The notes under the pieces were generated by a model that worked only from the letters and a program-made list of their open reading frames with translations, was not told the origin of the DNA and made no database searches. A stretch of 64,000 nt of DNA from Candidatus Omnitrophota bacterium (GTDB taxonomy: Bacteria > Omnitrophota > Gorgyraeia > Gygaellales > Profunditerraquicolaceae), in the NCBI GenBank assembly GCA_041653955.1, contig JBAZEH010000001.1:53342-117341 (forward strand). Reading direction: 5' to 3'. Position 1 is the stretch's first letter. Every line of letters begins with the position of its first letter. Shown here piece by piece: positions 5,955 through 37,061 of the stretch. The position numbers were made by a program, and so were the translations under genes.

Positions 5955-5955
5955 A

Positions 5956-21443: not shown

Positions 21444-21881
21444 CTATCTGTTCTCCCCCGGCTTGGTAGGCGCGGGATTAAGATATTTACCCAGCACCAT
21501 CCATGTTTTCGGACCGACTTTGCCGTCCGCCTGAAGATTGTTCGCCTTCTGAAAATCCGTTATCGCCTTCTTTGACTGGGGGCCTATCTTGCCGTCTACA
21601 ACCCCGGCATAAAATCCGGCGTTCTTTAAGGCCATCTGTATCTCTTTAGATGTGGGCTTATAAGGCCCGGGGGGAGGCAACTGCTCAAGCTTAACCTCCT
21701 CCACAAAAAGCGCGGGCTCTGGCGTCACGGTTACTGCCGGAGCTGTTGAGACATCGATCCTGCTTAACTCTTCCATAGATATCGGCTCCTGCGTTTCAGC
21801 GATAGGCTGCTGCTTTTTACCGCAACTGGCCAGGCAAACGGTTAACGCTAAAATAAGTACGGTCAATACTGGTCTCCTCAT
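21444..21881 (-). CDS. Lipoprotein with a peptidoglycan-binding (PG_binding_1) domain.
   Basis: Lipobox LASCG; C-terminal GVVDGKIGPQSKKAITDFQKANNLQADGKVGPKTW. Confidence 0.6.
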   Translation of the reverse strand: MRRPVLTVLILALTVCLASCGKKQQPIAETQEPISMEELSRIDVSTAPAVTVTPEPALFVEEVKLEQLPPPGPYKPTSKEIQMALKNAGFYAGVVDGKIGPQSKKAITDFQKANNLQADGKVGPKTWMVLGKYLNPAPTKPGENR

Positions 21882-21972
21882 AGCTATTCCTCCTGTAAGT
21901 TATAAAGACTGCCTCCAAAGGACAACTCTATTTTATTTTAATACTTCCAGCGTAAAAAGCAAATGAAATATA

Positions 21973-23169: not shown

Positions 23170-23172
23170 CTG

Positions 23173-23772
23173 TTAAGATTTAAGTACTGCTTCGCGCCTG
23201 CAACGGGGGCAGAGGACCTTCATACGGCCGGAGCGGCCGGGTTCCATCTCCTCTTTAGGCGAGGGTCTATCTTTTGAGGCGAGGCCTAATACTTTTAAAT
23301 AAAACGATATGAGCGATGGATTGGCAAAACAGAGCGGCCCGATCTTCTGCGCTACCCAGAATATCTGGTCATAAGGGACGATACTCTCTGCGCAGCAATC
23401 GCAAACCGCGAGCTCTTTTTCTATGGTTTGCTTCAATTCATCTTTACTGCCAGTAGTAGCCAGGTCAAAAATATTTGAAAGGATGATCCCCTTACCGGTA
23501 ATGCAGTTCGCCTGGCACTGCCCGCAGAATATACACAAGTTCCAGTTAACCGTAAGGACCCTTTTATTCTTTATATCCTGTATATCTATCGCCCTGGCAG
23601 GGCATACATTGGCACATGCTCCGCAGCCCACGCAATCCTCTTCATGGAACTCGGGACGCCCCCTGAACCTCTCAAATGGCGTATGGGGCTGATAAGGGAA
23701 TTTAGACGTATATGGGCCCTTGATCAATGCCCTGACCGCTTCCTTTAATTCTCTTAGTTTAGGGTATTTCAT
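23173..23772 (-). CDS. NuoI/MbhN-like 2x[4Fe-4S] ferredoxin subunit of the hydrogenase, with an extra C-terminal Cys-rich tail (CDCC ... CPRC). Last gene of the hydrogenase-Mrp operon.
   Basis: CVGCGACANVCP and CIFCGQCQANC motifs. Confidence 0.65.
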   Translation of the reverse strand: MKYPKLRELKEAVRALIKGPYTSKFPYQPHTPFERFRGRPEFHEEDCVGCGACANVCPARAIDIQDIKNKRVLTVNWNLCIFCGQCQANCITGKGIILSNIFDLATTGSKDELKQTIEKELAVCDCCAESIVPYDQIFWVAQKIGPLCFANPSLISFYLKVLGLASKDRPSPKEEMEPGRSGRMKVLCPRCRREAVLKS

Positions 23773-24101
23773 TTCTTTTCGTCTTCCGTGTACTTATCGC
23801 AAACCGAACCTTTCCATAACCTTACTCCGGATTTATGCGCGCCCTTTGCCAGCGCGTGCGCGGTAACGGGAGCAGTCAACAAAAGGAACAAGATACAGAT
23901 TATCGCCTTTACTCCTGCGGCGGTGAACCCGAACTTTATGAATACCCCCAGGAGTATCCCGCAGGTACCCAGCGTCACGCACTTGGTAGAAGCCTGAAGC
24001 CTGCTGTATATATCGGGGAGCCTGATCAATCCCAGGCATCCAAAAAGGTCAAAACTTATGCCGACAACTATGAATACGAGCGAGATCATCTCATTCATCA
24101 A
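23769..24101 (-). CDS. mrpG: Mrp antiporter subunit G.
   Basis: LGLIRLPDIYSRLQASTKCVTLG MnhG signature; about 110 aa, 3 TM. Confidence 0.7.
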   Translation of the reverse strand: MMNEMISLVFIVVGISFDLFGCLGLIRLPDIYSRLQASTKCVTLGTCGILLGVFIKFGFTAAGVKAIICILFLLLTAPVTAHALAKGAHKSGVRLWKGSVCDKYTEDEKK

Positions 24102-24429
24102 AATTCCTTCCTTCCAGGAACTTCGCCAGGGCGAGCGTACCGATAAAGCTCTGCAGGGCCCAGGCTATGGCGATATCTATATACCAATCTTTATTAGTGT
24201 AAACCGCCAATATGGCGCAAAAACCTATTATCAGGATGCCGAGTATATCGGTGGCTACCGACCTGTCTGCGGGAGTAGGGCCCCCTATTATCCTGCATAA
24301 GGAAAGCGCGAAACATATAATAAGATATAGCAACAACCTGGTATGAAGCTCTACCTTCAGCACGTGGAATATGAAATATACCGCCGAGCCAAGTATTATA
24401 AGGCCTATAAGCCAGCGCGCGAACTTCAT
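24091..24429 (-). CDS. mrpF: Mrp antiporter subunit F.
   Basis: IIGGPTPADRSVATD MnhF signature. Confidence 0.7.
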   Translation of the reverse strand: MKFARWLIGLIILGSAVYFIFHVLKVELHTRLLLYLIICFALSLCRIIGGPTPADRSVATDILGILIIGFCAILAVYTNKDWYIDIAIAWALQSFIGTLALAKFLEGRNFDE

Positions 24430-24929
24430 TCAAATACCTCTTTCAGTATCTTCTCAAATTTAGAAACGATGATCCCGGATGCCTCTACGATATCCTGTTT
24501 TTTTACGTCAAGCCAGTGTATATAAAGATACCCGTTCTCCCTGTCTATATCCACCGTCAATGTGCCCGGCGTGAGGGTAATGAAATTAGCAAGAAAGGTG
24601 AGGCCTGTCTCTGTTTTTAATATCGTCTTCACCTTAACGATCCCGGGGGTTATCGGCAAACTCGGGGCCAGGACACGGAAAGCGACGTCTATATTCGCCT
24701 TGATACATTCCCAGGAAAATACGAATAAATAAATGAAAAACCATATATAGCGCCTTAAATTAAGCCACTTGCCGGCCTGGTCAGTGAACATATCCCCCAT
24801 GGTCGAGGCGACCAGTAAGGCTGCCAGGAAGCCAACCAGAAGATGCTGCCAGTCAAAGCTAAAAGATAACAGCATCCAGAGTATAAATGAAACCCAAAAG
24901 GTGATTATTCTTGAACGTATGTAACGCAT
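24426..24929 (-). CDS. mrpE: Mrp antiporter subunit E.
   Basis: MnhE-like; ANIDVAFRVL ... ITLTPGT motifs. Confidence 0.7.
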   Translation of the reverse strand: MRYIRSRIITFWVSFILWMLLSFSFDWQHLLVGFLAALLVASTMGDMFTDQAGKWLNLRRYIWFFIYLFVFSWECIKANIDVAFRVLAPSLPITPGIVKVKTILKTETGLTFLANFITLTPGTLTVDIDRENGYLYIHWLDVKKQDIVEASGIIVSKFEKILKEVFE

Positions 24930-24932
24930 ACT

Positions 24933-26411
24933 TTATCCGGCTCCCAGTATTATGGCGGAGTAATTTAGGCCTCCCAGTAGCGCGTCTGCCGCAGGCCTTA
25001 TAACCATATCTATAAAGGGCGCGAAAAACAGGCCCACGGCAATGCATAAAAGTGCGAGCGCTACCATAGAAAATGACATATAGAACGGGGATTCCTTGAT
25101 ACCGCTTATTACCCCTTCTATCTTACGGGTAAAGGCGTATTTCTGCACTTTCAAGAAAGAGGCCAGGGTGACCATCCCTACTACTATACAAACGATACCC
25201 CCTATTATATTGTGCGCCTGGAATGCCGCGATTATGATCATCAGCTTGCTCCAAAACCCGCAGAATGGAGGCACGCCGGCAATAGATAAAGACGCGACCA
25301 GGGAAGTCGTGCTGGTTACCGGCATCTCCTTCGAGAAACCGCCCATCTTATCCAGCTGCCTTGTGCCGGATGCATACTCCAGGGAACCGGCATTAAGGAA
25401 AAGGAGTGATTTAAATAAAGAGTGGTTAAAAAGATGAAATAACCCTCCCATTATCCCAAGCGGCGTACCAAGTCCTATCCCGAATACGACATAACCTATC
25501 TGGCTGATAGAATGATACGCCAGCAGCCTCTTGAAATCCCATTGCCCTATGGCAAGAATAACGCCTACGAACATAGATATGATCCCCAGCCATATAAATA
25601 TATCCGAGATCGTCCGGTCAAAACCTATTATATTGAACATAACCCGCGAAAGGGCGTATACGCCGATAGTCTTTATTACCACTCCCGAAAGCATAGCCGA
25701 CATAGGGGCTGGCGCCGCCGGATGGGCGTCGGGAAGCCAGGCGTGGAAAGGGACTAAGGCTGCCTTCAAACCAAACCCCATTACGAACAGCGCGGTGCAA
25801 TAAAGTATTAAATTCTTTGAAGGCAGCGCCAAAAGAGACTTTCCTATATCCGCCATATTCAGAGTTGAAACGCTCCCCAGTATCATCCCGATAGCAAGAA
25901 GTATCAACGTTGACGCTACGCTTCCCAAGACAAGATACTTAAAAGCCGCTTCCAGGTCTTCCGCTTCCACCCCAAAGGCGACTAACGCGTAGCTCGCTAT
26001 GGAGGTAATCTCAATAAACACGAAAAGATTAAACATATCTCCGCTTATGACTACGCCGTTCAATCCGGCTAATAATAAGGAAAAAAGGGTATAATAAAGG
26101 GCGGGGGAACTGTATTTCTTGATATAATCTATTGAATATACGAGCGCCAGGAACCCTACAAGGTTCACTACCAAAAGCATGAGCACGCTTAAACCGTCGA
26201 GGGTCATGCATATCCCAAAAGGAGGTTTCCAGCCTCCGACGTAATAAACCCTCACCCCTTCCCTGAGCCAGAATATGCTTTTTACGGAAAAAAACAGCAG
26301 CAATAACCCGCCCAGATTAACCAAGAGCGCAGATGAGCCTTTGCGGAATTTGGATACGATAGGTATCAGAAAGGCGCAGGCTAAAGGTATGATCACAAAA
26401 ATAGGCAGCAT
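24933..26411 (-). CDS. mrpD: Mrp subunit D / NuoN-like proton-translocating antiporter-type subunit.
   Basis: NuoL/M/N-family polytopic protein, about 490 aa. Confidence 0.7.
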   Translation of the reverse strand: MLPIFVIIPLACAFLIPIVSKFRKGSSALLVNLGGLLLLFFSVKSIFWLREGVRVYYVGGWKPPFGICMTLDGLSVLMLLVVNLVGFLALVYSIDYIKKYSSPALYYTLFSLLLAGLNGVVISGDMFNLFVFIEITSIASYALVAFGVEAEDLEAAFKYLVLGSVASTLILLAIGMILGSVSTLNMADIGKSLLALPSKNLILYCTALFVMGFGLKAALVPFHAWLPDAHPAAPAPMSAMLSGVVIKTIGVYALSRVMFNIIGFDRTISDIFIWLGIISMFVGVILAIGQWDFKRLLAYHSISQIGYVVFGIGLGTPLGIMGGLFHLFNHSLFKSLLFLNAGSLEYASGTRQLDKMGGFSKEMPVTSTTSLVASLSIAGVPPFCGFWSKLMIIIAAFQAHNIIGGIVCIVVGMVTLASFLKVQKYAFTRKIEGVISGIKESPFYMSFSMVALALLCIAVGLFFAPFIDMVIRPAADALLGGLNYSAIILGAG

Positions 26412-26415
26412 AATA

Positions 26416-26754
26416 TTATCCTCTTAAGCGGCGGATCTCGTCTATATCAAAAGTCCTGTATTTTTCGTATAAGCGTATGGTGATAGCGACCATCAACGCG
26501 GTAACTCCCAGCCCGATCACGATAGATGTCAGGATAAGGGCCTGCGGAAGCGGATCAACGAAATTTACCGCCGCGCCATACTTATCCAGTATAGGCGCCT
26601 CTCCATTATCACGGTAACCAAGCAGTATGAAGAAAAGGTTTATGGCATACTCCATTATGCCAAGGCCTACTATCTTCTTGATAAGGTTCCTTTTGACCAG
26701 CAGGCAATATAAGCCTACGGCGAACAATATCAGGCAGAGTATATAAATGCTCAT
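26416..26754 (-). CDS. mrpC: Mrp subunit C (NuoK-like).
   Basis: 3-TM NuoK-like protein, 112 aa. Confidence 0.7.
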   Translation of the reverse strand: MSIYILCLILFAVGLYCLLVKRNLIKKIVGLGIMEYAINLFFILLGYRDNGEAPILDKYGAAVNFVDPLPQALILTSIVIGLGVTALMVAITIRLYEKYRTFDIDEIRRLRG

Positions 26755-27206
26755 ACCTTCTTTCCTCCGTTATCCTCCACCGGCATCCTGAATATCGCCA
26801 GGGCGATGAATATGGCGAACAGCCCCGCTCCTACTTTTAAGAATATCGCTATATTGCATAGAATAATCATGCCGGAACTGAACAGCTTAAAGGGTTCGCC
26901 TTTAGGCAGTATATTAAAGAAAAAATACCCTCCCGCAAGCCCTAAAAGCGCTATACCCAGGAAGAATACCCCTCCCAAAGATTCAATTATGGATATTGCC
27001 GCCTCATTCAATCTTTTTACGGCGGCTTCCCTGCCAAAGGCAAGCACCAGATGAATAAAAGATAATGCTATGATCACACCTCCGGCGAACCCCCCTCCGG
27101 GAGTAAGATGCCCGTGCAGAAGTATATACACGCCGTAAAGGAATATAAGGCTAACCGTTATTTTGGTGACGCGCTTCACTATCAAAGACATTCCCGCTTC
27201 TCTCAT
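26751..27206 (-). CDS. mrpB: Mrp subunit B.
   Basis: LHGHLTPGGGFAGG MnhB motif. Confidence 0.7.
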   Translation of the reverse strand: MREAGMSLIVKRVTKITVSLIFLYGVYILLHGHLTPGGGFAGGVIIALSFIHLVLAFGREAAVKRLNEAAISIIESLGGVFFLGIALLGLAGGYFFFNILPKGEPFKLFSSGMIILCNIAIFLKVGAGLFAIFIALAIFRMPVEDNGGKKV

Positions 27207-27721
27207 CTCTTCCTTCCCGCTATCCTTAAAACAGCCAGCACCCCTATCACAGAAGTAAACAACACCGTTGCTTCACCCAGGGTATCATAACCCCTGAAAT
27301 CCAGTATTACCGCAGATACTATATTAGCGGCGCCAGTCATTGATAACGCGCTGTTTATATACTGGCTCCCCATCTTCATTATCGGAAAGCCGAAAGCCGG
27401 TAATTGCGCTAAGGCCTTATGGCTGAACACCAGAAATATACCGGTAAATAAGAACGCGAAGGTAAGGTATGCTGTCTTGCTCCTCAATCTCTGGTGAGGG
27501 ATATTCGCCCCTATAGTCACCCTTATCAATATGATCACGGTCAATATCTCTACTACCAGCTGCGTAATAGCGAGGTCCGGAGCCCGCAACAGCAAGAATT
27601 CCAGAGTAAGGCCCATCCCTACCGCTCCGAGAGCGATGACGCTGGAAAGCAGGTCCTCTATCTCCATCGCCACTATCGCCCCTATGATCATCAATATCAA
27701 TACCGCGTGCAACTCTATCAT
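27203..27721 (-). CDS. MnhB-domain protein (MrpA C-terminal-like / MbhD-E-like).
   Basis: NIVSAVILDFRGYDTLGE motif typical of the MrpA C-terminal/MnhB domain. Confidence 0.6.
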   Translation of the reverse strand: MIELHAVLILMIIGAIVAMEIEDLLSSVIALGAVGMGLTLEFLLLRAPDLAITQLVVEILTVIILIRVTIGANIPHQRLRSKTAYLTFAFLFTGIFLVFSHKALAQLPAFGFPIMKMGSQYINSALSMTGAANIVSAVILDFRGYDTLGEATVLFTSVIGVLAVLRIAGRKR

Positions 27722-27722
27722 T

Positions 27723-29612
27723 TTACCTGCCCATAAAAATAAGTAACATAATGATCAGCCCTGCCATACTCCATGCCAGATACTGGTTCAATGCCCCGGT
27801 ATGCGCCTTTCTAAAAACCCAGCTTAAACCCAAAACCAGGTATCCGGCAGCATTGGTCAGATAATATATAAGGCGGTCTATAAAAAGATAGAGGCAGTTC
27901 GCCGAAACGCGTAATAATCCCGACAACATATTGTAAAAGTCTGCCGCCTCCGTCCCTAAAAGACGATACAGCTTATTTATTAAAGGGATAGCGCTGATAC
28001 TCTTATAAAACTCGGTAGCGGGGAATGTCGGTTCAAAATGAGTGGTTTCCCCTCCTATATAATAAGTATCCTTCCTCATATTCCTGCCTGCCGATAGCTG
28101 CCATAATATCAACCCCGCGCACAGGCCAAAGAAAAGAAAGATAAAAGCGAAAATGCTGTTCCATGTGCCGATAAATGATATATCTTTGCCTATCCACGGA
28201 CCGATCAGGTCATTGACGAACAATTTCGGCAATACGCCAAGCAGTACGCAAAGCGCGGCCAATATCAGGAGAGGGGCAGTCATGCTCAAAGGCGCCTCTT
28301 TGGGCTTATCATTACTTTGGCGGTGGTCCTGGCCAAGGAATATCGCGTGGATAAATTTAGCAAAACTGGCTAGCGTAAGGGCGCTTCCGAACATAGCGGC
28401 AACAAGGGCAAAGATATAGACGCAACGCAACCAAAGATTAGGCGTATTAAACATGCCTACCAGCGTCCCCTGGTAAAGCATCCACTTTGAGGCAAAGCCG
28501 TTAAAAGGAGGAACGCCGGAAATAGATAAAGAGAACACCAGGCCCGAAATAAAAGTAAGGGGCATATACACGGCGAGCCCGCCGAGTTTCTCCAATTCAA
28601 ATGTTTTCCCCTTCTCCCCTACCGCCCCCCCTACCAGGAATAATCCGCTTTTATATATGGCGTGGTTGATCATATGGAATATCCCCCCGGCGATACCTAA
28701 GGCAGTGCCCGTCCCGAAACCAAGCACCATATATCCTACCTGGCTTATGGCGTGAAAGGATAATAATTTCCTGAGGTCATGCTGTATCAACGCCATCATT
28801 ACCGCGAATATTATAGTCAAACTTCCGGTTATAAGCAATATACCCATTGCGGCTGCGTTAGGCGCAAAGAAATCTGTGCAGATGCGCGCCAGAAGGTATA
28901 TCCCAAGCAATTTGTCTAAAGACGCCGGGAGAATAGCCATCACCGGGGCCGGGGCATCCTCGGCGGCAGCAGGTATCCATGTGTGAAATGGGCCGCATCC
29001 TGCTTTGGCAAAAGCGCCCACCAGCATCAACAGGAAAGACGCCCATATCACAGGGGTATCCAGCGCTAATCCCGCTTTCTCAGGCATGAGAGTATTGCCG
29101 GTAGCGGCAATATACAGGCATATCCCCAACATCAAAGAAAAATCCGCGAACCCGACAATAGAAAGCGCCTTTTTGGCGCTGTGCCCTGAGCCGATATTCA
29201 AAAGCGCGTAAAGCAGCGCCAAAGTAACACCCCAGGAGAAAACAAAAGTAATAAAATCAGCCGACATGAGCGCCAGGTTAGAAAAAGCTATGAGCCACAG
29301 GAGGTATGAAAAATAAGCTCCCTTCTTTTTCATATAATCCCTGGAATAAAGGCATACCAGCAGACCAAACAGGTTTACGAAAACGACAATTATGCGCGAG
29401 AGCTTATTAAACCCGAGCATGAGGCCGTAATCTCCGATAAGCCCAACTATCTCTAAAGACGGCAGTCTAAAGCAGATATATACCGACCAGAAAAGGCCCG
29501 CCAGGAATATTAATGACGCCAGGTTCTTCTTTACCCGGTCCCCCTTGAAGAAAATAAGGATGAGCCCGGATATTACATGCAATACAATCAGTATAAATAA
29601 GTTCATTCCCAT
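27723..29612 (-). CDS. mrpA: MrpA/NuoL-like antiporter subunit (629 aa).
   Basis: NuoL-family proton-pumping subunit with a long C-terminal extension. Confidence 0.7.
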   Translation of the reverse strand: MGMNLFILIVLHVISGLILIFFKGDRVKKNLASLIFLAGLFWSVYICFRLPSLEIVGLIGDYGLMLGFNKLSRIIVVFVNLFGLLVCLYSRDYMKKKGAYFSYLLWLIAFSNLALMSADFITFVFSWGVTLALLYALLNIGSGHSAKKALSIVGFADFSLMLGICLYIAATGNTLMPEKAGLALDTPVIWASFLLMLVGAFAKAGCGPFHTWIPAAAEDAPAPVMAILPASLDKLLGIYLLARICTDFFAPNAAAMGILLITGSLTIIFAVMMALIQHDLRKLLSFHAISQVGYMVLGFGTGTALGIAGGIFHMINHAIYKSGLFLVGGAVGEKGKTFELEKLGGLAVYMPLTFISGLVFSLSISGVPPFNGFASKWMLYQGTLVGMFNTPNLWLRCVYIFALVAAMFGSALTLASFAKFIHAIFLGQDHRQSNDKPKEAPLSMTAPLLILAALCVLLGVLPKLFVNDLIGPWIGKDISFIGTWNSIFAFIFLFFGLCAGLILWQLSAGRNMRKDTYYIGGETTHFEPTFPATEFYKSISAIPLINKLYRLLGTEAADFYNMLSGLLRVSANCLYLFIDRLIYYLTNAAGYLVLGLSWVFRKAHTGALNQYLAWSMAGLIIMLLIFMGR

Positions 29613-31006: not shown

Positions 31007-31623
31007 CTCTTCGCTTTATTCAGGTTATTCGCGATCTTCCGTATATGATGATAAACGGAGGCTGCGAAATCCAGCATATTCAGGAACATATTACAGGCAA
31101 GGGGAGTGCATACCCCATCCATCATCCTCTGGTCATGGCGCTTACGGTACTCATCCACTAATTTATCTATCTGCTTATCCTGCTTGGCCACCTCGCTCAT
31201 CAGGGAATAATCGTCTTTCTCCATCGCGAAAACCACATCCCCAAGCGCCTTCTCCGCCCTGGAATAAAGGTCGCTGTATTCTTTTACCGCGTCATCGCTA
31301 AAGAGCAGCTTCTCTTCTATCTTTATCTGGACCCTTTCAAGTATATCCTTGCAATAATCTCCGATCATCTCCAGGTCGCCCACTATATCGGCATAAAATG
31401 TTACCTTCTCCTTATCCTTTTTCTGCAAAGAGACCCTGCCAAACTCCACCAATTCCGCGGTTATACCTTCTTCCAGCTTATTCAGGTTTTTCTCTTTTTC
31501 CAATATCACGGAGATAAGGTCCAGGTCCTGCTCCATAAAGACCCTGTAAGTAAGCTGCCACATCTCCAGGGTGACCCTGGACATTGCCGATATCTCCTGT
31601 TTTATCTCACTTAATTGCGGCAT
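31003..31623 (-). CDS. PhoU-domain protein embedded in the hydrogenase-Mrp operon.
   Basis: Two-repeat helical protein; YADIVGDLEMIGDYCKDILE resembles the PhoU signature. Confidence 0.5.
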   Translation of the reverse strand: MPQLSEIKQEISAMSRVTLEMWQLTYRVFMEQDLDLISVILEKEKNLNKLEEGITAELVEFGRVSLQKKDKEKVTFYADIVGDLEMIGDYCKDILERVQIKIEEKLLFSDDAVKEYSDLYSRAEKALGDVVFAMEKDDYSLMSEVAKQDKQIDKLVDEYRKRHDQRMMDGVCTPLACNMFLNMLDFAASVYHHIRKIANNLNKAKR

Positions 31624-32803
31624 TACGCGCCTCCTGCATTCTCCGTGTTTTCTCTTGAGAAAGTTTTATCAGGTCCCATCCGTTCATTATCTTTTTATCC
31701 GTGCCCCTGTCTAAGACTGCCAGCCTCTCCGTACAGCAATAACAGGGGTCTACCGCTGCCAGCGTTATAGCCGCATCCGATATTGTCCCTCCCACGGCGG
31801 CCACTTTATTGGATGCTACATTAGCATAGCTGGGCGCGCGGATCTTATGCCTGACGGGCCTGTTAGTGCCGTCGCTTCTTACGTAATGAAAACACTCTCC
31901 CCTTGGCGCCTCGACGCGGCCTATACCGTCTCCGGGCGGAACATCCTTTATATCAGCGTCGATCTCGCCTTTGGGCATCTTATCCAGGCACTGGCGGATT
32001 ATGCGTATGGATTCATGCATCTCCAATATCCTTACTATGGTTTTGGCAAATACATCTCCGTCCTTCTCGGTGATCACGTTCCAGTCAACCTTATCATATG
32101 CCCCATAAGGATCATCCCTGCGTATATCTATATTTATTCCTGAAGCCCTTGCCGTGGGTCCGACAACACACCAGTCAACCGCCTGCTGTCTGGTCAGGAT
32201 ACCTACCCCTTTAAGGCGCGCCTGTATCACGGGATCATCCATAACAGCCCCCTTAAACATATCTACGGCGCCAGACAGCTCATCCAATACCTTCTTAAGC
32301 GCGGGGATATCTTCTTCTTTTATATCGCGGCGCACCCCGCCGACTTTCATCATGGCGTAATGGTTACGATTGCCGCTGATCATTTCAAACATATTAAGTA
32401 TCGGCTCGCGGTATTTCCATGCCCACATCCAAACCGTATTGTAACCGATAAAATGCCCTGCCAACCCAAGCCACAATAGATGGCTGTGTATCCTCTCCAT
32501 CTCCGCGATAACCGTGCGGATATAAAGCGCACGTTCCGGGACCTGTATCCTTCCTAAGTCTTCCACGGCATTTACATAAGCGAATGGATGTGAAGTAGAG
32601 CATATACCGCAGATACGTTCAACCAGAAATGCCACCTGGTCAAAATGCTTATGTTCGGACAATTCCTCGATCCCCCGGTGCATATAACCGATGACTATAT
32701 CTATATCGACTACCTTTTCCCCTTCCACGTACAGCCGGAAAAACTCCGGTTCCTCCTGCAAGGGATGATAAGGGCCTATAGGCAGGACGATTTTATGACT
32801 CAT
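31607..32803 (-). CDS. Group-4 (energy-converting) [NiFe]-hydrogenase large subunit (NuoD/EchE/MbhL-like).
   Basis: N-terminal RICGIC and C-terminal DPCYCC Ni-Fe ligands are retained; C-terminal tail after DPCxxC fits HycI-type cleavage. Confidence 0.85.
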   Translation of the reverse strand: MSHKIVLPIGPYHPLQEEPEFFRLYVEGEKVVDIDIVIGYMHRGIEELSEHKHFDQVAFLVERICGICSTSHPFAYVNAVEDLGRIQVPERALYIRTVIAEMERIHSHLLWLGLAGHFIGYNTVWMWAWKYREPILNMFEMISGNRNHYAMMKVGGVRRDIKEEDIPALKKVLDELSGAVDMFKGAVMDDPVIQARLKGVGILTRQQAVDWCVVGPTARASGINIDIRRDDPYGAYDKVDWNVITEKDGDVFAKTIVRILEMHESIRIIRQCLDKMPKGEIDADIKDVPPGDGIGRVEAPRGECFHYVRSDGTNRPVRHKIRAPSYANVASNKVAAVGGTISDAAITLAAVDPCYCCTERLAVLDRGTDKKIMNGWDLIKLSQEKTRRMQEARNAAIK

Positions 32804-33227
32804 GGCTGTGCCTCAACGGGTATTTACCTTGCGGCCATTCATCTATCAAAAGCAGGTGCGTAAGGTTGGGGTGGCCGACAAAATCGACTCCCAATAACTC
32901 CCATATCTCGCGCTCTATCCACTCCGCGCCTTTAAAGAGCGAAGCGATAGAGTCTATCCTGGGGTTTTTCTTATCTTCTATCAAAAGGCACACGGAGAAT
33001 ACCTGCCCGGCCTTATCGTAACAAAAATGGTAAAGCATTTCTATCCCCTTGGGGGTATCCTGGCCGGTAGCTATAGAAAACCTTAGTTTCAGTTCGTTGA
33101 ATAGTATGCCCGCGACCTCTTTGATATCCTGGGGCTTTATCCAAAAGTATATCCTTTTGGATGAATGCTCGTTCCAGCCAGTTATCTTGCTTCCCAGTTT
33201 CTCTTTTATCTCTCCGACCATAGACAT
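32793..33227 (-). CDS. Hydrogenase NuoC-like subunit (EchD/MbhK).
   Basis: NuoC/30-kDa-subunit fold; WIEREIWELLGVDFVGHPNL. Confidence 0.75.
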   Translation of the reverse strand: MSMVGEIKEKLGSKITGWNEHSSKRIYFWIKPQDIKEVAGILFNELKLRFSIATGQDTPKGIEMLYHFCYDKAGQVFSVCLLIEDKKNPRIDSIASLFKGAEWIEREIWELLGVDFVGHPNLTHLLLIDEWPQGKYPLRHSHES

Positions 33228-33658
33228 TATTTTTCGCCTCTTACTTTCTTTATTAATTTAGCTATCCCCGCTATCATCGCTTCCGGCTTTGGAGGGCAGC
33301 CGGGTATATAGACATCCACCGGCACAATCTCATCCACCGCGCAGGGAGAATTATAAGAATCCCTGAACATTATCCTGCCGCAGGCGCATCCACCGATAGC
33401 AACGACCACGCAGGGCTTAGCCGCCTGGTCATATATTTTCTTCAGCCTCTCTTTGGTCTTATAGTTAGGCACCCCGGTAACCAGAAGCGCGTCCGCGTGA
33501 CGGACGCTCCCCACAAGCACTATCCCCAGCCGCTCAATATCATAGCGCGGCGTAAGCAGGTCCAATATCTCTATATCGCAATTATTACAGGGAGAACAGG
33601 CAGCGTGGAATACCCATATTGATTTAGTAAGTGCTTTTAATTTAATGCTCATCTTCAA
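33227..33658 (-). CDS. Hydrogenase small subunit (NuoB/EchC/MbhJ-like).
   Basis: Proximal-cluster cysteines: CNNCDIE ... GGCACGRIMF ... PGCPPKPE. Confidence 0.85.
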   Translation of the reverse strand: MKMSIKLKALTKSIWVFHAACSPCNNCDIEILDLLTPRYDIERLGIVLVGSVRHADALLVTGVPNYKTKERLKKIYDQAAKPCVVVAIGGCACGRIMFRDSYNSPCAVDEIVPVDVYIPGCPPKPEAMIAGIAKLIKKVRGEK

Positions 33659-34602
33659 TACCCCGATACGGCCAATCCTACCGCCATAACCGCGAGTATG
33701 GTCATGGGCCCCCAGAAGAATTTCAGCGCCTGGTCAATGCGCAGACGGGGGTTGGTATTTTTGATCAATATAATTACTACCAATAACACGGTATATTTAC
33801 CTATTAAAGCTAACGGGGAAAGGCTGCTTCCCCAGAATAGGGCTACCAATAATAAAGGCATCGTATAAAGCAGGAGCGCCTTGGTCATTTTGAATACGGC
33901 CAGCGGCAGCCCGGAATATTCAATAAGGACCCCCGCCATTATCTCCTGTTCCGCTTCAGATATATCAAAGGGAACGAAACCCAGCTTTGCCTGCATGCAG
34001 AATATGCTTACGATAAACGCCAACGCCCCGGACCAGGATGCCAGGTTAGAACCGAAATTTATCTGGTGGTTAAGTATGGAACCCAGTTGTATGCTTCCCG
34101 CGCTCCTGATCACCACAGCGATCACCGAGAGTATGAACGGGAGTTCATACGCCATGACGAGTTTCATCTCTCTTGACGCGCCCACCGAAGCGAGGGGGTT
34201 ACGCGAACTGGATGCCCCAATTATCATACCTATGGCCGGGATTACCAGAAGGTATAATATAACGATCAGGTCCCCGGTAAAACTCTCAAGGGGAGAGCGC
34301 ACGGTAAGGCCCGTGATAGTAGCTACCATTATAGTGCTCAATAATCCCGCGAAAGGCGCCAAAAGAAAGGTCAATTTTGCCGCGCCCTGGGGTATGATCG
34401 TTTCCTTGCCAAGCAACTTTACTATATCTATAAAATTCTGGTACCACGGAGGGCCCACGCGCCACTGTATTCGGGCGGTAACCTTCCTGTCTACCCATCC
34501 GGCCAAAAGCCCGACGCAGGAGCTGAAAAGAAAACCGGGGAATATCAGATAACTGAATATTATCTTCATCTCTTCTTTATCTGCAGGTCCTCCTTTGACC
34601 AC
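33655..34602 (-). CDS. Hydrogenase membrane subunit (NuoH/HycD/EchB/MbhM-like).
   Basis: NuoH-family 8-TM protein; RKVTARIQWRVGPPW. Confidence 0.8.
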   Translation of the reverse strand: MVKGGPADKEEMKIIFSYLIFPGFLFSSCVGLLAGWVDRKVTARIQWRVGPPWYQNFIDIVKLLGKETIIPQGAAKLTFLLAPFAGLLSTIMVATITGLTVRSPLESFTGDLIVILYLLVIPAIGMIIGASSSRNPLASVGASREMKLVMAYELPFILSVIAVVIRSAGSIQLGSILNHQINFGSNLASWSGALAFIVSIFCMQAKLGFVPFDISEAEQEIMAGVLIEYSGLPLAVFKMTKALLLYTMPLLLVALFWGSSLSPLALIGKYTVLLVVIILIKNTNPRLRIDQALKFFWGPMTILAVMAVGLAVSGY

Positions 34603-35057
34603 TTAAGGGTATGCACCGCCAGATGATCTCCTACAAAATAAATATTTTTCTCCGGGTCCTCTGCGACCTCTTTGACCTCTATCGCCTTCTCTGGGCATGT
34701 GGTTACGCATTTAGGGAGTTTACCGGATACGCCTACGCAATAATCACAACGGGAGTCCAGGTAAGGAATAAAATCCTGGAAGATTATCCCGAAAGGGCAG
34801 GCGACGCTGCAGGACTTGCAGCTTGTGCAGCGCATCTTATAACGCTTAAGATGGCCGTCCGCGGAACGCTCAAGCGCATTATGATAGCAGGAGTTCACGC
34901 AGGGGGCCTCTTCGCAATGACGGCAGATAGTAGCAAAGGTCGCGTATTCGCGCAGCGATGTAACCCCGTTATTCTGCGGATGATAGAAATAATCGCAGGT
35001 TACCTTGCACTCCTCGCATTTAGCGCAAACTTCAAGATCAACGAATAACCTTTTCAT
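34566..35057 (-). CDS. Polyferredoxin-like 4Fe-4S protein (HycB/HydN-like).
   Basis: Several CxxCxxCxxxCP-type clusters across 163 aa. Confidence 0.7.
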   Translation of the reverse strand: MKRLFVDLEVCAKCEECKVTCDYFYHPQNNGVTSLREYATFATICRHCEEAPCVNSCYHNALERSADGHLKRYKMRCTSCKSCSVACPFGIIFQDFIPYLDSRCDYCVGVSGKLPKCVTTCPEKAIEVKEVAEDPEKNIYFVGDHLAVHTLKWSKEDLQIKKR

Positions 35058-35060
35058 AAA

Positions 35061-35876
35061 TCAATCCCAGATATCGTGCGTATCCTTTAATTGGTCATAA
35101 GTAAAGACCGGGCCGTCTTTACAGGTATAATAACTTCCTAAACGGCAATGCCCGCATTTACCAAGGCCGCAGGACATATTCTTTTCCATGGAGAGATATA
35201 TACCCTCCGGGTCAAACCCCAGGTCCAATAATTTCAATGTAACGAATTTCATCATTATCGGAGGGCCGCATACTATACAGACCGCTTTCTTCAGGTCCAC
35301 CGGAACGTCTTTCAATATCGTGGTGACCAGGCCCACATTCCCTTTCCAGCCCGGGGTACCCACGTCCACGGTAGTCACTATATCTACCTTTTTCTTCTTT
35401 GCCCACTGGGGAATAGCTTCCTTGTATATGATGTCGTTTGCCGTGCGCGCGCCGTAGCGCAGGACCACTTTATTATATTTGTCTATTTCCGAAAAGAGGC
35501 TGAAAAGCAGGGAGCGCAGCGGCGCCAGCCCTACCCCTCCTCCCACTATCAGGATATCCTTGCCCGCGAATTTTTCAAGCGGATACCCTTTGCCATACGG
35601 GCCGCGTATCCCTAATGATATATTCTTTTCGCTGGTGTGCAAAATAGAGGTGATCTTGCCGGCCTTCATGATCGTCACATCCATCTTGTCCGTTATATTA
35701 GGGTCGGATGAAGGAGTAAAAGGGGCTTCCCCTATCCCCGGCAGAGTCAGCTCTATGAACTGCCCTGTCCTGAACTCAAATGGCTCCTTAGGCCTTAAGA
35801 CAAATGTCTTAATTGTAGGGCTTTCAATGATTATATCTTCAAGTATCGCTTCCTTGGGAGCGTAAATATTATTCAT
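35061..35876 (-). CDS. FAD/NAD(P)-binding [2Fe-2S] oxidoreductase (AsrB / sulfhydrogenase gamma / PyrK-like).
   Basis: RxFT flavin motif (EFRTGQFIEL), GGGVGLAPLRSL NAD(P) motif and C-terminal CGxGxCxxC [2Fe-2S] motif. Confidence 0.8.
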   Translation of the reverse strand: MNNIYAPKEAILEDIIIESPTIKTFVLRPKEPFEFRTGQFIELTLPGIGEAPFTPSSDPNITDKMDVTIMKAGKITSILHTSEKNISLGIRGPYGKGYPLEKFAGKDILIVGGGVGLAPLRSLLFSLFSEIDKYNKVVLRYGARTANDIIYKEAIPQWAKKKKVDIVTTVDVGTPGWKGNVGLVTTILKDVPVDLKKAVCIVCGPPIMMKFVTLKLLDLGFDPEGIYLSMEKNMSCGLGKCGHCRLGSYYTCKDGPVFTYDQLKDTHDIWD

Positions 35877-36934
35877 TTCGCGCCACCGAGCTTGACAGCC
35901 AGGTCCTTCAATACTTCCCTTATATCTATCTTACCCGGGCATACCTCAATGCACCTGCCGCAGCCGCAACATGCGGGCATACCTAAATTATCTATGAAAA
36001 AATCAAACTTCTTGGTAAATCTGAATCTTAGCCTTTGCGCCCTTAGTTTATTTGGATTTGCCCCGCCCGCTACCCTGGCGTAATTGGCGTATAAACACGC
36101 GTCCCACAACTTGACCTTCTTATTAGTGCTGCCTTCTTTTTTATCCGCCAGCAGGAAACAATGGCAGGTATCACATATAAAATTGCACCCGCCGCATTCA
36201 ACGCAGGTGCTCATGAACTTCTGCCAGGTATCCAGGCTGTAGCCGTCCTTAACCAGCCTTTGCACGCTGTCCTTAGAAACCAGGTGTTGGGGCAGAAGGT
36301 GCTTTTTTAACCGCTCTATGAGGCTCTCTCTCTTTGCCTTACGCGATGCTATCTGGGTATCCCTGGCTGGAGAAAAAAACTCTTTATACTGCTGTATCAA
36401 CTCCTCGCCTTTTTTTGAGCCCACTTCCACAAGATAACCTTCGCTTAAAGGAGAAAGGTTAATGTCGAATCCTTCCGCCGGATGCGGCAATATCTCCCAG
36501 GCAAGGCAATGGCAGACATCCTTAAAGTCAGTGCAGTCGCTTGAGATAATCACCGTATTTTCGCGCCTTAAACGATAGATAGGATCTACCTCTACTCCTT
36601 CCAGGAATACGAAATCCTGGACCTTATGCCCTGCTATATCACACGCCTTGACCCCGAATATAACCACGCGTTCCGGCTGTGCGACAGGCCGGCCTGGCGA
36701 GAAATATTCCGCCGCCTCGTCCTGCGCGTAAGTAAAGAATGATTTAAGGGGTTCGACTGCGCGGTAAGGGTTGAATTGGAAGGGTTCACCTTCGGGAGTC
36801 TCCCTGAAGGAATAATCAGTCCTTTTGGTGAAATTCTGTTCTTTCGCAACCGGAGAGAATACCCTGTACCTTCTCTTCAGGTCATTAAAGAAACTCTCAA
36901 ACCGGCCGGATTCAATATAGTATATATTATACAT
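35873..36934 (-). CDS. AsrA / sulfhydrogenase beta-like FeS subunit. The probable start is the ATG at 36934 (MYNIYY...); the ORF-track extension to 37000 is less likely.
   Basis: CVECGGCNFICDTCHC and CCGCGRCIEVCP cluster motifs. Confidence 0.7.
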   Translation of the reverse strand: MYNIYYIESGRFESFFNDLKRRYRVFSPVAKEQNFTKRTDYSFRETPEGEPFQFNPYRAVEPLKSFFTYAQDEAAEYFSPGRPVAQPERVVIFGVKACDIAGHKVQDFVFLEGVEVDPIYRLRRENTVIISSDCTDFKDVCHCLAWEILPHPAEGFDINLSPLSEGYLVEVGSKKGEELIQQYKEFFSPARDTQIASRKAKRESLIERLKKHLLPQHLVSKDSVQRLVKDGYSLDTWQKFMSTCVECGGCNFICDTCHCFLLADKKEGSTNKKVKLWDACLYANYARVAGGANPNKLRAQRLRFRFTKKFDFFIDNLGMPACCGCGRCIEVCPGKIDIREVLKDLAVKLGGAK

Positions 36935-36943
36935 CCTGGGAGA

Positions 36944-36973
36944 ATTATAAAAAATGGGAGGGATATTATGCAA
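36944..36973 (-). promoter_or_regulatory. Candidate promoter of the hydrogenase-Mrp operon: TTGCAT, 18 nt, TATAAT, then 9 nt to the ATG (near-leaderless).
   Basis: Read directly on the minus strand; a second TTGACA candidate lies near 37026-37031. Confidence 0.3.
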
Positions 36974-37061
36974 AATACCACAAAATAGCCCTGACAACAA
37001 AAAGGTTATAATAAAATACTATATTTACCCCTTATTGTCAAGAAAAAAAACAGTAATCGCG

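Follow-up and report, generated by a model that had tools for sequence, protein, structure and literature searches.

The minus strand of the window, the whole 64,000-nt stretch of Omnitrophota MAG DNA analysed here, carries 18 co-directional genes between positions 36934 and 23173, whose ORFs were verified (within 37000-23173) and whose junctions range from -17 to +4 nt; all features described below lie on this strand. These genes, hunA to hunP and two extra genes, form a real, tightly packed operon, as the initial annotation had proposed, and Pfam and NCBIfam back nearly all of its domain and subunit assignments. The ORF of the first gene is open as far as a TTG at 37000, from which the gene had been read, but the start is most likely the ATG at 36934, since the resulting 353-aa product agrees with the NCBI model and with homologues. 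The first operon ORF is separated from the TPR gene upstream by 61 bp, which contain a promoter-like TTGACA-17 nt-TATTTT site (37013-37041), the top match (10/12) in a sigma-70-like scan of positions 21300-39000; it is a promoter candidate by consensus match only, and such a match does not prove function. At the other end, the gene string had been taken to stop at 23173, yet it continues 3 nt past hunP with an MFS_3 transporter gene (21973-23169; Pfam MFS_3, 1.6e-66), which is followed by a 91-nt gap before the next gene and is possibly co-transcribed with the operon. This gene lies next to hunP in 18 of 35 complete Omnitrophota loci but is no member of the published Hun complex; in Kosmotoga olearia no MFS_3 gene follows hunP, and hycI and hypFCD are found there instead. 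No hyp or hycI gene was found in the 64,000-nt window.

The first three genes encode the putative electron-input proteins. HunA (35873-36934, 353 aa; Pfam Fer4_22, 1.4e-26) is an AsrA/sulfhydrogenase-beta-like FeS protein that matches the NCBIfam families ShyB (1.3e-52), HydB (2.3e-42) and AsrA (1.1e-31), all under their equivalog cut-offs; its single PDB match is the beta subunit of Pyrococcus furiosus SHI (9nez_B, 1.2e-37), and 15 of its Cys are invariant (n = 54 sequences). HunB (35061-35876, 271 aa; Pfam NAD_binding_1, FAD_binding_6 and DHODB_Fe-S_bind) is an AsrB/sulfhydrogenase-gamma-like flavoprotein with sequence-predicted FAD, NAD(P) and [2Fe-2S] sites, and its residues 30-267 align with SHI gamma (9nez_C, 1.5e-52). 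Little or no variation is seen in the GGGVGLAPLRS, CGPPxMMK and RGPYG motifs or in the four [2Fe-2S] Cys (n = 56). Arg144, which follows strand 2 of the NAD domain and is conserved in 55/56 sequences, might touch the 2'-phosphate, a weak inference. HunC (34566-35057, 163 aa; Pfam Fer4_11) is a HycB/HydN/CooF-like ferredoxin with four Cys4 motifs, all 16 Cys being invariant (n = 63), and its top PDB matches are HycB4 of HDCR (7qv7_B, 9e-13) and E. coli FHL HycB (7z0s_B, 3e-12). The initial assignment of the AsrAB/HydBG-like genes to the operon is borne out: there is a 4-nt overlap at both the hunA-hunB and the hunC-hunD junction (ATGA in the latter), and 3 nt lie between hunB and hunC. Moreover, hunA-C are retained in 35/35 complete loci and in 53/53 related loci with sufficient upstream DNA, and hunD always comes immediately after them, whether in Omnitrophota, Kosmotoga or Elusimicrobiota.

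The hydrogenase genes follow. hunD (33655-34569, 304 aa; Pfam NADHdh, 1.5e-64) encodes a NuoH/MbhM/HycD-like membrane subunit and probably starts at the ATG at 34569, its ORF being open as far as a GTG at 34602. HunE (33227-33658, 143 aa; Pfam Oxidored_q6, 2.9e-26) is the NuoB-type small subunit, with C24, C27, C91 and C121 invariant (73-74 sequences with a residue at each position), and HunF (32793-33227, 144 aa; Pfam Complex1_30kDa, 1.6e-24) is NuoC-like. HunG (31607-32803, 398 aa; Pfam Complex1_49kDa and NiFeSe_Hases), 100% identical to a protein from an NCBI Omnitrophota MAG, is the group 4 [NiFe] large subunit. Its Ni-Fe ligand motifs RICGIC (C65, C68) and DPCYCC (C354, C357) are invariant in 81/81 orthologues, in agreement with the earlier reading as a true hydrogenase rather than an Mbx/Mbs derivative; a 38-aa tail extends beyond DPCYCCTER, and PDB matches include MbhL (6cfw_L, 1.2e-87) and HycE (7z0s_E, 6e-80). 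The last gene of the operon, hunP (23173-23772, 199 aa; Pfam Fer4 families), encodes a NuoI/HycF-like 2x[4Fe-4S] ferredoxin with a Cys-bearing C-terminal extension; the eight cluster Cys as well as C124, C127, C188 and C191 are invariant (n = 43). HunP matches the FHL iron-sulfur subunit in NCBIfam (2.3e-28), and its top PDB match is HycF (7z0s_F, 4e-18), MbsN and MbhN ranking lower.

The genes hunH to hunO make up a complete Mrp-type module that is physically joined to the hydrogenase. Counting one of the two extra genes, the operon encodes the three antiporter-type subunits that had been claimed (464, 629 and 492 aa), all of which carry Proton_antipo_M. The 629-aa HunH (27723-29612; 1.6e-47) is a long MrpA-N/MbsH'/HycC-like subunit that matches NCBIfam PRK08668 over almost its whole length (1.3e-72) and, in the PDB, MbhH (5e-40), MrpA (3e-39), MbsH' (6u8y_X, 3e-38) and HycC (2e-29); its TM5 Glu is replaced by Gly128 in 61/63 sequences, with the Lys residues retained. 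The 492-aa HunL (24933-26411; 2.8e-69) is MrpD/MbhH-like (MbhH 6cfw_H, 1e-80; MrpD 7qru_D, 2e-73), and its Glu134, Lys216, Lys247, Lys334 and Lys389 are invariant in 42/42 sequences. Two genes had been described as MrpB-like: this holds for the MrpB/MbhF-like HunJ (26751-27206, 151 aa; Pfam MnhB, 1.5e-25), which exceeds the NCBIfam PRK08386 cut-off, whereas HunI (27203-27721, 172 aa; Pfam MbhD, 3.4e-16, and MbhE, 4.3e-10) corresponds to the MrpA C-terminal domain, its NCBIfam match covering MrpA-model residues about 600-790. The module is completed by the MrpC/NuoK-like HunK (26416-26754, 112 aa; Pfam Oxidored_q2, 2.5e-28), the MrpE-like HunM (24426-24929, 167 aa; Pfam MNHE, 4e-44), the MrpF-like HunN (24091-24429, 112 aa; Pfam MrpF_PhaF, 1.1e-17) and the MrpG-like HunO (23769-24101, 110 aa; Pfam PhaG_MnhG_YufB, 3.7e-25), which exceeds the NCBIfam NF009314 cut-off.

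It appears very probable (about 0.9) that the locus is an Omnitrophota hun operon encoding a Hun-type respiratory complex with a HydDB 4g-type [NiFe] hydrogenase, in which HunD-G and HunP would form the hydrogenase module and HunA-C a cytoplasmic input module. Hun was described from genomes as a 16-subunit Ni-Fe hydrogenase-Na+/H+ antiporter supercomplex of Atribacteria, Omnitrophica, Elusimicrobia and cultured Kosmotoga, with AsrAB-like HunAB and a HunG of HydDB group 4g bearing diagnostic CGIC...CYCC ligands (Glass et al. 2021, bioRxiv 10.1101/536078). The identification rests on the presence of these ligands and on K. olearia, which carries the same 16 hun genes in identical order, with hycI and hypFCD after hunP; each is a colinear orthologue, at 35-58% identity (58% for HunG), and among 50%-identity cluster representatives that of Kosmotoga is one of the two closest (59-60% identical). 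'Group 4g, Mrp-linked' hydrogenases are also listed in Omnitrophota surveys (PMC8542988, PMC10066038), and AsrAB-like genes adjoin Mrp-linked group-4 hydrogenases in Saganbacteria (PMC6349859) and in group 4b (PMC13582414). The initial annotation did not recognise the composition and called it uncharacterised; since the accessory gene set had already been described, the claim of novelty largely falls, and 'uncharacterised' holds in the biochemical sense only, the searchable literature containing no purified or assayed Hun enzyme.

The locus is a modest variant of known Hun, from whose 16-gene operon it differs by the insertion of two genes between hunG and hunH. One (31003-31623) encodes a 206-aa PhoU-like protein (Pfam PhoU, 7.8e-17, two repeats) and shares 17 nt with hunG. 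The other (29612-31006; Pfam Proton_antipo_M, 6.4e-72) encodes the 464-aa third pump, a NuoL/MrpA-N/HyfD-like antiporter-type subunit (NCBIfam NuoL, 1e-96, and HyfD, 1.3e-90; PDB MrpA 6z16_A and E. coli NuoL, about 5e-57) whose TM5 Glu133, Lys208, Lys239, Lys325 and Lys380 are conserved in 20-21/21 sequences. The PhoU-like gene is absent from Kosmotoga, which has no orthologue of the pump gene either, and both are accessory to Hun, the PhoU-like gene being present in 38 and the pump gene in 16 of the 62 loci in which the hunG-hunH junction is covered. Elusimicrobiota homologues of the pump share 47-52% identity, and the one that was checked, P0524, occupies the same slot in a hun-like operon. 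A three-pump group-4 hydrogenase cluster also occurs at locus L084, and E. coli Hyf is another such cluster. Short-form loci contain only HunA-G, PhoU, HunH and HunP (one, L077, adds a truncated 218-aa g09-like ORF) and combine a Hyc-like membrane arm with the same HunA-C input module. MTHFR, FTCD_C and FolD genes immediately precede hun in one Elusimicrobiota genome.

Gene content, its conservation and that of the metal- and nucleotide-binding residues are direct observations; subunit contacts, donor, ion and direction are inferred. The working mode to which we give roughly even odds combines NAD(P)H input, an FHL-type wire and a gradient-coupled membrane arm. HunB would bind FAD and NAD(P)(H), and electrons would pass from its [2Fe-2S] cluster to the FeS clusters of HunA, the four-cluster ferredoxin HunC, HunP, HunE and finally the HunG Ni-Fe site. 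Hun would then be a formate-hydrogenlyase-type wire with the beta-gamma diaphorase of soluble sulfhydrogenase in place of FdhF, a likeness suggested by the best PDB matches of HunC (HycB-type) and HunP (HycF) and by the Hyc-like arm of the short-form loci. NAD(P)H input, a reasonable suggestion of the initial annotation, is favoured because of the invariant FAD/NAD(P) motifs of HunB and its near full-length match to SHI gamma; SHI beta-gamma is ascribed a role in NADPH oxidation in PMC13582414 (citing Xiao et al. 2025). Since H2 formation from NAD(P)H costs about 18 kJ/mol under standard conditions, the reaction would most likely be coupled to an ion gradient through the membrane arm, and this could run both ways: an inflow of ions may drive NAD(P)H oxidation to H2, or H2 oxidation with NAD(P)H formation may pump ions. 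Against this reading, hun transcripts of K. olearia grown on pyruvate reach only about 40-200 RPKM, versus about 2000 for the Fe-only hydrogenase, so that Hun is not the main H2-evolving enzyme of that organism on this substrate.

In the only published Hun model the donor is ferredoxin instead of NAD(P)H (Glass et al. 2021, bioRxiv 10.1101/536078): HunABC gather electrons from reduced ferredoxin for the Ni-Fe site of an H2-evolving, ion-pumping Mbh-like complex, and the NAD(P)H role of the flavoprotein is nil or minor. We consider this proposal possible but rather doubtful. Group 4g is putatively ferredoxin-coupled in HydDB, the best solved relative of HunG is the ferredoxin-dependent MbhL, and HunC or HunP could offer ferredoxin a docking site irrespective of HunAB. 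A 2-oxoacid:ferredoxin oxidoreductase beta gene lies in the window, and electron flow from ferredoxin to H2, which is exergonic, suits outward pumping by an Mrp module, as in MBH. To our knowledge, all biochemically characterised group-4 hydrogenases use a low-potential donor (ferredoxin, formate or CO), for which the HydDB table is likewise cited. Yet such a complex has no need for the FAD/NAD(P)-binding subunit that is kept so consistently here; MBH functions without one, and Salmonella AsrAB is known as NADH-linked, not ferredoxin-linked. The Rnf operon in the same window would already provide a ferredoxin outlet.

It is improbable that both donors act together, reduced ferredoxin (through HunC/HunP) and NAD(P)H (through HunB) being co-oxidised to H2, or both being formed from H2, while the membrane arm contributes or taps ion-motive force. 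The 15 invariant Cys of HunA suffice for three or more clusters, and for group-4b clusters with SHI-beta/gamma homologues and an inactive Fdh-like protein a branched, bifurcation-type network has been suggested on the basis of AlphaFold models (PMC13582414); a molybdopterin-domain protein is encoded between HunB and HunC in some Hun operons (bioRxiv 10.1101/536078), and Saganbacteria clusters combine AsrAB-like and CooF-like genes with a molybdopterin-containing oxidoreductase (PMC6349859). The Omnitrophota and Kosmotoga operons, in contrast, have no molybdopterin or Fdh-like gene to supply a third redox branch, and an FNR-type fold with one FAD is not known to act as a bifurcating site. That HunAB, with HunC, are mere neighbours of an Mrp-Mbh hydrogenase and work as a separate NAD(P)H-dependent sulfite or polysulfide reductase, as in AsrABC or sulfhydrogenase, is very unlikely: although the best-named NCBIfam families are AsrA/AsrB and ShyB/ShyC, and a sulfur-reductase activity of SHI is cited in the literature, the sub-cut-off scores, the overlapping or nearly abutting genes and their constant position upstream of hunD argue against it, as does the operon's lack of both an AsrC/siroheme gene and any other catalytic partner.

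Altogether, the operon adds a modest variant to a complex whose gene set has been known since 2021. With NAD(P)H as its input, Hun and the Rnf complex, whose operon lies in the window as well, would give this organism a chemiosmotic link between ferredoxin, NAD(P)H and H2.

The window encodes 18 consecutive minus-strand ORFs, running from 37000 to 23173 and joined by junctions of −17 to +4 nt, which bears out the co-directional gene string described in the initial annotation. According to Pfam and NCBIfam, the first three genes encode an AsrA/ShyB/HydB-like FeS protein, an AsrB/HydG-like protein with FAD-, NAD- and [2Fe-2S]-binding domains, and a 163-aa ferredoxin with four Cys4 motifs. They are followed by NuoH-, NuoB- and NuoC-like subunits (genes 4 to 6, same models), by the NuoD-type [NiFe] large subunit (gene 7, 31607-32803, minus strand) and by a PhoU-domain protein with two PhoU repeats (gene 8). 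Genes 9 and 10 specify Proton_antipo_M subunits of 464 aa and then 629 aa (the latter at 27723-29612), genes 11 to 13 an MbhD+MbhE protein, MnhB and MrpC (Pfam and NCBIfam), and genes 14 to 17 a 492-aa MrpD/MbhH-like subunit followed by MrpE, MrpF and MrpG; the string ends with a NuoI/HycF-like ferredoxin (gene 18, 23173-23772), all on the minus strand. Nearly all domain assignments made initially are therefore retained, including the three antiporter-type subunits of 464, 629 and 492 aa, all of which are Proton_antipo_M proteins; the exception is the second "MrpB", which is the MbhD+MbhE protein and corresponds to the MrpA C-terminal domain.

This composition had been thought unrecognised, which does not hold. 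Glass et al. 2021 (bioRxiv 10.1101/536078; Environ Microbiol) had named the same 16-gene operon hun, for a 16-subunit "Ni-Fe hydrogenase-Na+/H+ antiporter supercomplex" found in MAGs of Atribacteria, Firmicutes, Omnitrophica, Elusimicrobia and Bacteroidetes and in Kosmotoga isolates. In that work, HunAB are AsrAB-like and HunG falls in HydDB group 4g, distant from other 4g members and with a CGIC...CYCC signature; "group 4g, Mrp-linked" hydrogenases are also listed in surveys of Omnitrophota (PMC8542988, PMC10066038). All 16 hun genes occur in the window in the published order, with two extra genes inserted after hunG, and the window HunG carries exactly the published CGIC...CYCC motifs. The two systems are thus alike in their 16 products, gene order, motifs and the taxa named (Omnitrophica, Kosmotoga), whereas the PhoU-like protein, the NuoL-like third pump and the abutting MFS_3 gene are absent from the text of the paper (10.1101/536078). 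In the literature searched, the name Hun is used by the original paper only, and no biochemical study of the complex was found.

Kosmotoga olearia links the window to the named family. When clustered at 50% identity, the large subunits of Omnitrophota form a group of their own; the closest cluster representatives share 59-60% identity with them and all others at most 49%, and K. olearia is one of the two nearest clusters. Its complete genome (strain TBF 19.5.1, CP001634.1) contains the 16 core genes in identical order, at approximately Kole_0561-0576, with 16 of 16 colinear matches to the window at 35-58% identity (58% for HunG), and no counterpart of the PhoU-like protein or of the 464-aa subunit. 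The synteny comparison proposed initially thus revealed an accessory gene set that was already known. Gene order, the CGIC/CYCC motif and Kosmotoga orthology all place the window operon in Hun. The observation itself is confirmed, with small corrections, while its central novelty claim fails: the window operon is an Omnitrophota representative of Hun, a family named earlier, with an accessory PhoU-like protein and a third pump subunit. In the K. olearia locus (608398-629606), Kole_0567, which covers the hunH-I-J region (pfam00361+04039+13244), was originally annotated as a pseudogene. The region contains three intact ORFs (599, 178 and 152 aa) matching the split arrangement of Omnitrophota, and the "pseudogene" call is probably an annotation artefact, made because a fused MrpA was expected.

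Translation of the first gene, hunA, most probably starts at the ATG at 36934 (353 aa), as in the NCBI model and in homologues. A sigma-70-like match, TTGACA-17-TATTTT (37041-37013, minus strand), falls in the 61-bp gap 5′ of the first operon ORF; it is the top score of a 17.7-kb scan and a consensus match only. Rfam and tRNA scans detected no RNA family or tRNA in the operon interior, and terminator-like matches were not enriched over shuffled sequence (20 found vs 20.3 expected). An MFS_3 transporter gene (21973-23169, minus strand) lies 3 nt past hunP, the NuoI-like gene, and is followed by a gap of 91 nt. The same gene is found 3′ of hunP in 18 of 35 complete Omnitrophota loci, but not in Kosmotoga, where hunP is directly followed by the maturation genes hycI, hypF, hypC and hypD. 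In the window, the large subunit has a 38-aa extension (residues 361-398) after DPCYCCTER, of the type usually cleaved by a HycI-type endopeptidase, and no hyp or hycI gene was found among the 58 ORFs scanned of the 62 long ORFs in these 64 kb of genome. Genes upstream of hunA in loci carrying a shorter form of the operon had been suspected to be hyp genes; Pfam identified them as the housekeeping genes MnmA, NadA, pseudouridine synthase, PAP2, PfkB and YqeY.

A genome scan with one genome per species recovered relatives of the large subunit in 389 genomes. The best 80 of these 389 loci, nearly all from Omnitrophota, form the comparison set, and the locus frequencies quoted here hold for that sample. 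Among the 120 protein clusters listed as matches to the large subunit, a protein from an NCBI "Candidatus Omnitrophota bacterium" MAG shows 100% identity and the other 118 show 82-89%; the source names given are always Omnitrophota/Omnitrophica or generic enzyme names. The AsrA-like protein, too, is common across Omnitrophota. All 35 loci that cover the full operon retain the three input genes (hunA-C), the four hydrogenase genes plus the NuoH-like gene, the 629-aa subunit and the NuoI-like gene, and 32 of them also retain the MrpB-G genes. The AsrA/AsrB-like pair is present in every locus with sufficient DNA upstream of the NuoH-like gene (53/53), which upholds its proposed place in the operon; 13 loci seem to lack hunA because a contig end cuts them. 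Separate transcription of hunA-C finds no support, given this synteny, terminators at the shuffled level and a best promoter-like site 5′ of hunA.

The short form of the operon, in which MrpB-G are missing in cis, occurs in three Omnitrophota loci of the comparison set (L074, L077 and L080) and, judging from their visible parts, in two more (L052 and L072). It comprises HunA-G, PhoU, HunH and HunP, often with MFS_3, the exceptions being a diverged relative of the 464-aa subunit gene in L072 and a truncated one in L077. Such a complex would in effect consist of a Hyc-like membrane arm joined to the same flavoprotein input module. In the window operon, all Mrp equivalents are present, namely HunH (MrpA-N-like), HunI (MbhD/E, equivalent to MrpA-C), MnhB, MrpC, MrpD, MNHE, MrpF and MrpG; by homology, the operon holds a complete Mrp-type (CPA3) subunit set, with putative Na+/H+ exchange.

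The cysteines of the two catalytic subunits are strictly conserved. The large-subunit motifs RICGIC (C65, C68) and DPCYCC (C354, C356, C357), which contain the Ni-Fe ligands C65/C68/C354/C357, are invariant in 81 of 81 sequences, and small-subunit residues C24, C27, C91 and C121 are invariant in the 73-74 sequences with a residue at each position. Presumed metal ligands are also invariant in the ferredoxin (16 Cys), the NuoI-like protein (8+4), the flavoprotein ([2Fe-2S] Cys) and the AsrA-like protein (15). The cysteine sets predicted for the Ni-Fe site and the proximal [4Fe-4S] cluster of a catalytically competent group 4 enzyme are therefore present, and the initial view of a true hydrogenase, as opposed to an Mbx/Mbs derivative, stands. 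Beyond its two [4Fe-4S] motifs, HunP (23173-23772, minus strand) has four further cysteines (C124, C127, C188 and C191) that are invariant (43/43), two of which form a CxxC in a C-terminal extension; they could represent an additional metal site or a docking element.

The two inserted genes are less constant than the core. Of the 62 loci that cover the junction (from the best 80 of 389), 38 have PhoU and 16 the 464-aa subunit, and both are patchily distributed on a neighbour-joining tree of the large subunit, a tree that is weak because the protein is 76-86% identical throughout. The 464-aa subunit is NuoL/MrpA-N/HyfD-like; like HunL, it keeps the TM5 Glu and the lysines in TM7, TM8 and TM12, the complete charged-residue set expected of a working antiporter-like subunit. 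In HunH (27723-29612, minus strand), Gly128 replaces the TM5 Glu of NuoL/M/N- and MrpA/D-type subunits in 61 of 63 orthologues, while the lysines are retained and TM8 carries an Asp-Lys pair. Orthologues of the 464-aa subunit form about 85 protein clusters in Omnitrophota, with homologues in Elusimicrobiota at 47-52% identity. One Elusimicrobiota locus (L083; GCA_040757695.1, JBFLWK010000019.1) contains a hun-like operon in which a third antiporter-like gene takes the position it has in the window; this operon lies immediately 3′ of MTHFR, FTCD_C and FolD genes, which belong to the methyl branch of one-carbon metabolism. Similar subunits are also found in an unrelated three-pump group-4 cluster devoid of HunAB (L084). 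Because it recurs in Omnitrophota, in Elusimicrobiota and in this unrelated cluster, the possession of three pumps is an accessory state and not a peculiarity of the window. The Elusimicrobiota operon is interspersed with ORFs of 64, 118 and 119 aa that have no Pfam match, a 517-aa CsgG/FlgO-like ORF and a 114-aa ORF of the 23S_rRNA_IVP family.

Hun shares features with several solved complexes. Among these, the P. furiosus MBH (group 4d, 6CFW) is nearest to the large subunit (1.2e-87) and, via MbhH, to HunL (1e-80). Both complexes fuse a NuoBCDHI-type hydrogenase module with MrpB-G-type subunits. MBH reportedly contains a single antiporter-like subunit, lacks an input module and is reduced directly by ferredoxin, whereas Hun has two (core) or three (window) antiporter-like subunits together with HunA-C. 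Gene order also differs, with the hydrogenase genes first and NuoI last in Hun, as does the aligned L2 motif (CYCC vs DPCLSC in MbhL). Hun thus works like MBH in part, but its extra pumps and HunA-C set it outside the 14-subunit MBH/4d type with its single antiporter-like subunit and no input module. The second-best solved relative of the large subunit (6e-80) belongs to E. coli FHL-1 (Hyc, group 4a, 7Z0S), in which HycB resembles HunC, HycF is the best PDB match of HunP, and HycC resembles HunH. Hun differs from FHL in having the HunAB flavoprotein module where FHL has formate dehydrogenase, NuoC and NuoD as separate genes, and a full MrpB-G set. The related Hyf complex (FHL-2) has three antiporter-like subunits, as does the window operon. 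An FHL or CO-linked enzyme of groups 4a-c was rejected, as neither a molybdopterin/Fdh domain nor a CooS domain was found in the 18 genes or the genes flanking them.

The input module has its closest solved counterpart in a soluble enzyme, the group 3b sulfhydrogenase SHI (P. furiosus soluble hydrogenase I, 9NEZ). HunA aligns with SHI beta over residues 15-338 of 353 (1.2e-37) and HunB with SHI gamma over residues 30-267 of 271 (1.5e-52), with conservation of the FAD/NAD(P) and FeS motifs. SHI beta-gamma wire NADPH to soluble group-3 alpha-delta subunits, whereas the partners in Hun are membrane-bound and of the group-4 NuoD/NuoB type; a group 3b enzyme is excluded on this ground, despite the beta/gamma-like genes. 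Matches of ShyA/HydA models to the large subunit are confined to its N-terminal residues ~26-138 (8e-13 and 4e-5). An AsrABC sulfite reductase does not fit either, with no AsrC-like gene in the operon and scores below cut-off for AsrA (110 bits vs 323) and AsrB (215 vs 289). Nor do hunAB appear to be a mere neighbour of sulfite reductase or sulfhydrogenase type, as AsrC and group-3 catalytic subunits are missing, scores fall below cut-off and consecutive genes overlap or lie at most 3 nt apart. P. furiosus MBS/Mbx (6U8Y) shares with the core Hun membrane arm a pair of antiporter-like subunits, MbsH and MbsH′; HunH matches MbsH′ at 3e-38, and nearly all of HunH is spanned by its top NCBIfam model. 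MBS lacks the Ni-Fe cysteines and reduces polysulfide; HunG retains all four ligands, and an Mbx/Mbs-type non-hydrogenase was thus rejected.

Related combinations have been reported before. The "enigmatic" group-4 hydrogenase of Saganbacteria RX5A, with closest relatives in Zixibacteria and Omnitrophica, is associated with Mrp-like subunits and AsrA/AsrB-like genes (PMC6349859), and group-4b clusters contain multiple proton-antiporter subunits and SHI-beta/gamma homologues (PMC13582414). Likened to Hun by gene content, both also have CooF-like or other ferredoxin genes beside the group-4 hydrogenase, but they carry a molybdopterin or Fdh-like subunit that is missing from the window operon. For Thermosphaera, a complex of the Mbx type linked to an NADPH dehydrogenase was put forward as a hypothesis in 2010. 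Because of the hun operon of Glass et al., the Omnitrophota 4g surveys, the Saganbacteria and 4b clusters and the Thermosphaera proposal, the composite architecture must be regarded as already described and named.

The identity of the electron donor is where the window departs from the published model: Glass et al. 2021 assign ferredoxin, while the sequence evidence favours NAD(P)H. The HunB motifs GGGVGLAPLRS, CGPPxMMK and RGPYG and the flavin-side PFTPSS vary little or not at all across 56 sequences, and a passage of PMC13582414 describes SHI beta-gamma as involved in NADPH oxidation. HunC is closest to HycB-type four-cluster ferredoxins, HunP is closer to HycF than to MbhN or MbsN, and the large subunit resembles HycE almost as closely as it does MbhL. 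If two homologous solved assemblies are a guide, electrons would pass from HunB (FAD, 2Fe-2S) through HunA, HunC, HunP and HunE to the Ni-Fe site of HunG. The simplest reading would be an FHL-type wire in which an NAD(P)H-binding diaphorase takes the place of formate dehydrogenase. The short-form loci fit such a wire because they keep HunA-C with just the NuoH-like protein and one HycC-like membrane subunit (L072 and L077 having relatives of the 464-aa subunit in addition).

Taken together, we estimate the probability that Hun is NAD(P)H-linked at roughly one in two. To our knowledge, every characterised group-4 enzyme uses a low-potential donor. Ferredoxin is also the donor in the published model (Glass et al. 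2021, bioRxiv 10.1101/536078); nevertheless, this literature-assigned donor is probably not the one to which the HunB flavoprotein points, and exclusive use of ferredoxin appears unlikely. A complex that accepts both ferredoxin and NAD(P)H seems more improbable still. The Kosmotoga literature yielded expression values and no biochemistry: in K. olearia grown on pyruvate, published values show hun weakly transcribed, at ~40-200 RPKM vs ~2000 for the Fe-only hydrogenase.

The H+/H2 couple (−414 mV) is more strongly reducing than NAD(P)H (−320 mV). If NAD(P)H is the donor, H2 release must therefore be driven, while H2 uptake could pump; for this reason, the Mrp-type arm would couple the reaction to an ion gradient, in a direction set by H2 pressure. 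This leads to the tentative and somewhat doubtful proposal that Hun is a reversible NAD(P)H-linked [NiFe] hydrogenase, obligatorily coupled to an ion gradient and complex-I-like in layout, with a sulfhydrogenase beta-gamma diaphorase as its N-module and the Ni-Fe centre in place of the quinone site. Genes for an Rnf complex (4495-9359) and for a subunit of a 2-oxoacid:ferredoxin oxidoreductase also lie in the window, so that two ion-coupled machines, Hun and Rnf, could connect ferredoxin, NAD(P)H and H2. If the proposal is true, the pair would be a purely chemiosmotic substitute for flavin-based electron bifurcation among the three, and the form with PhoU and a third pump, shared by the window and roughly one in four hun loci of Omnitrophota, would either have a higher ion/electron ratio or be regulated.

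The Rnf operon (minus strand) is complete, with RnfC, an FMN-binding RnfG-like protein, RnfD, two Rnf-Nqr membrane subunits and RnfB; its gene order by Pfam is C-G-D, vs the usual C-D-G. It is preceded by an MFS_3 gene (9347-10612, minus strand), whose stop overlaps the rnfC start by 13 nt, and, further upstream, by a TPR membrane protein gene (11222-12970, minus strand). Hun and Rnf are both flanked by paralogous pairs of this kind, each a multi-pass TPR protein and an MFS_3 transporter: the TPR protein at 37062-38831 (minus strand) is 39% identical to that at 11222-12970 (E 2e-132), and the MFS_3 protein at 21973-23169 is 27% identical to that at 9347-10612 (E 4e-23). Elsewhere in the window, an oxidative-stress gene cluster (57369-62968, minus strand) of this presumed anaerobe encodes a thioredoxin-reductase-like flavoprotein, a flavodiiron protein (ODP and flavodoxin), an FNR-type NAD-binding reductase and a peroxiredoxin fused to a pterin-4a-carbinolamine dehydratase domain.

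What the window adds to the named family is a variant only, defined by PhoU and the third pump. The lasting interest lies in the Hun family itself, which is widespread, has no biochemistry in the literature searched and has a cultured host at hand for the donor question. The hun operon was found in every sufficiently long locus examined among the best 80 of the 389; given this and the occurrence of large-subunit relatives in 389 species-level genomes, Hun may be a principal energy-converting hydrogenase of Omnitrophota, a globally distributed and uncultured phylum. Because K. olearia is a cultured thermophile with a complete genome and the same 16-gene operon accompanied by maturation genes, the donor question is directly testable. 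Should the donor be NAD(P)H, this would establish a new link between the NAD(P)H/H2 couple and an ion gradient, and metabolic reconstructions of Omnitrophota, Atribacterota and their relatives, drawn with a ferredoxin-burning Mbh, would need revision.
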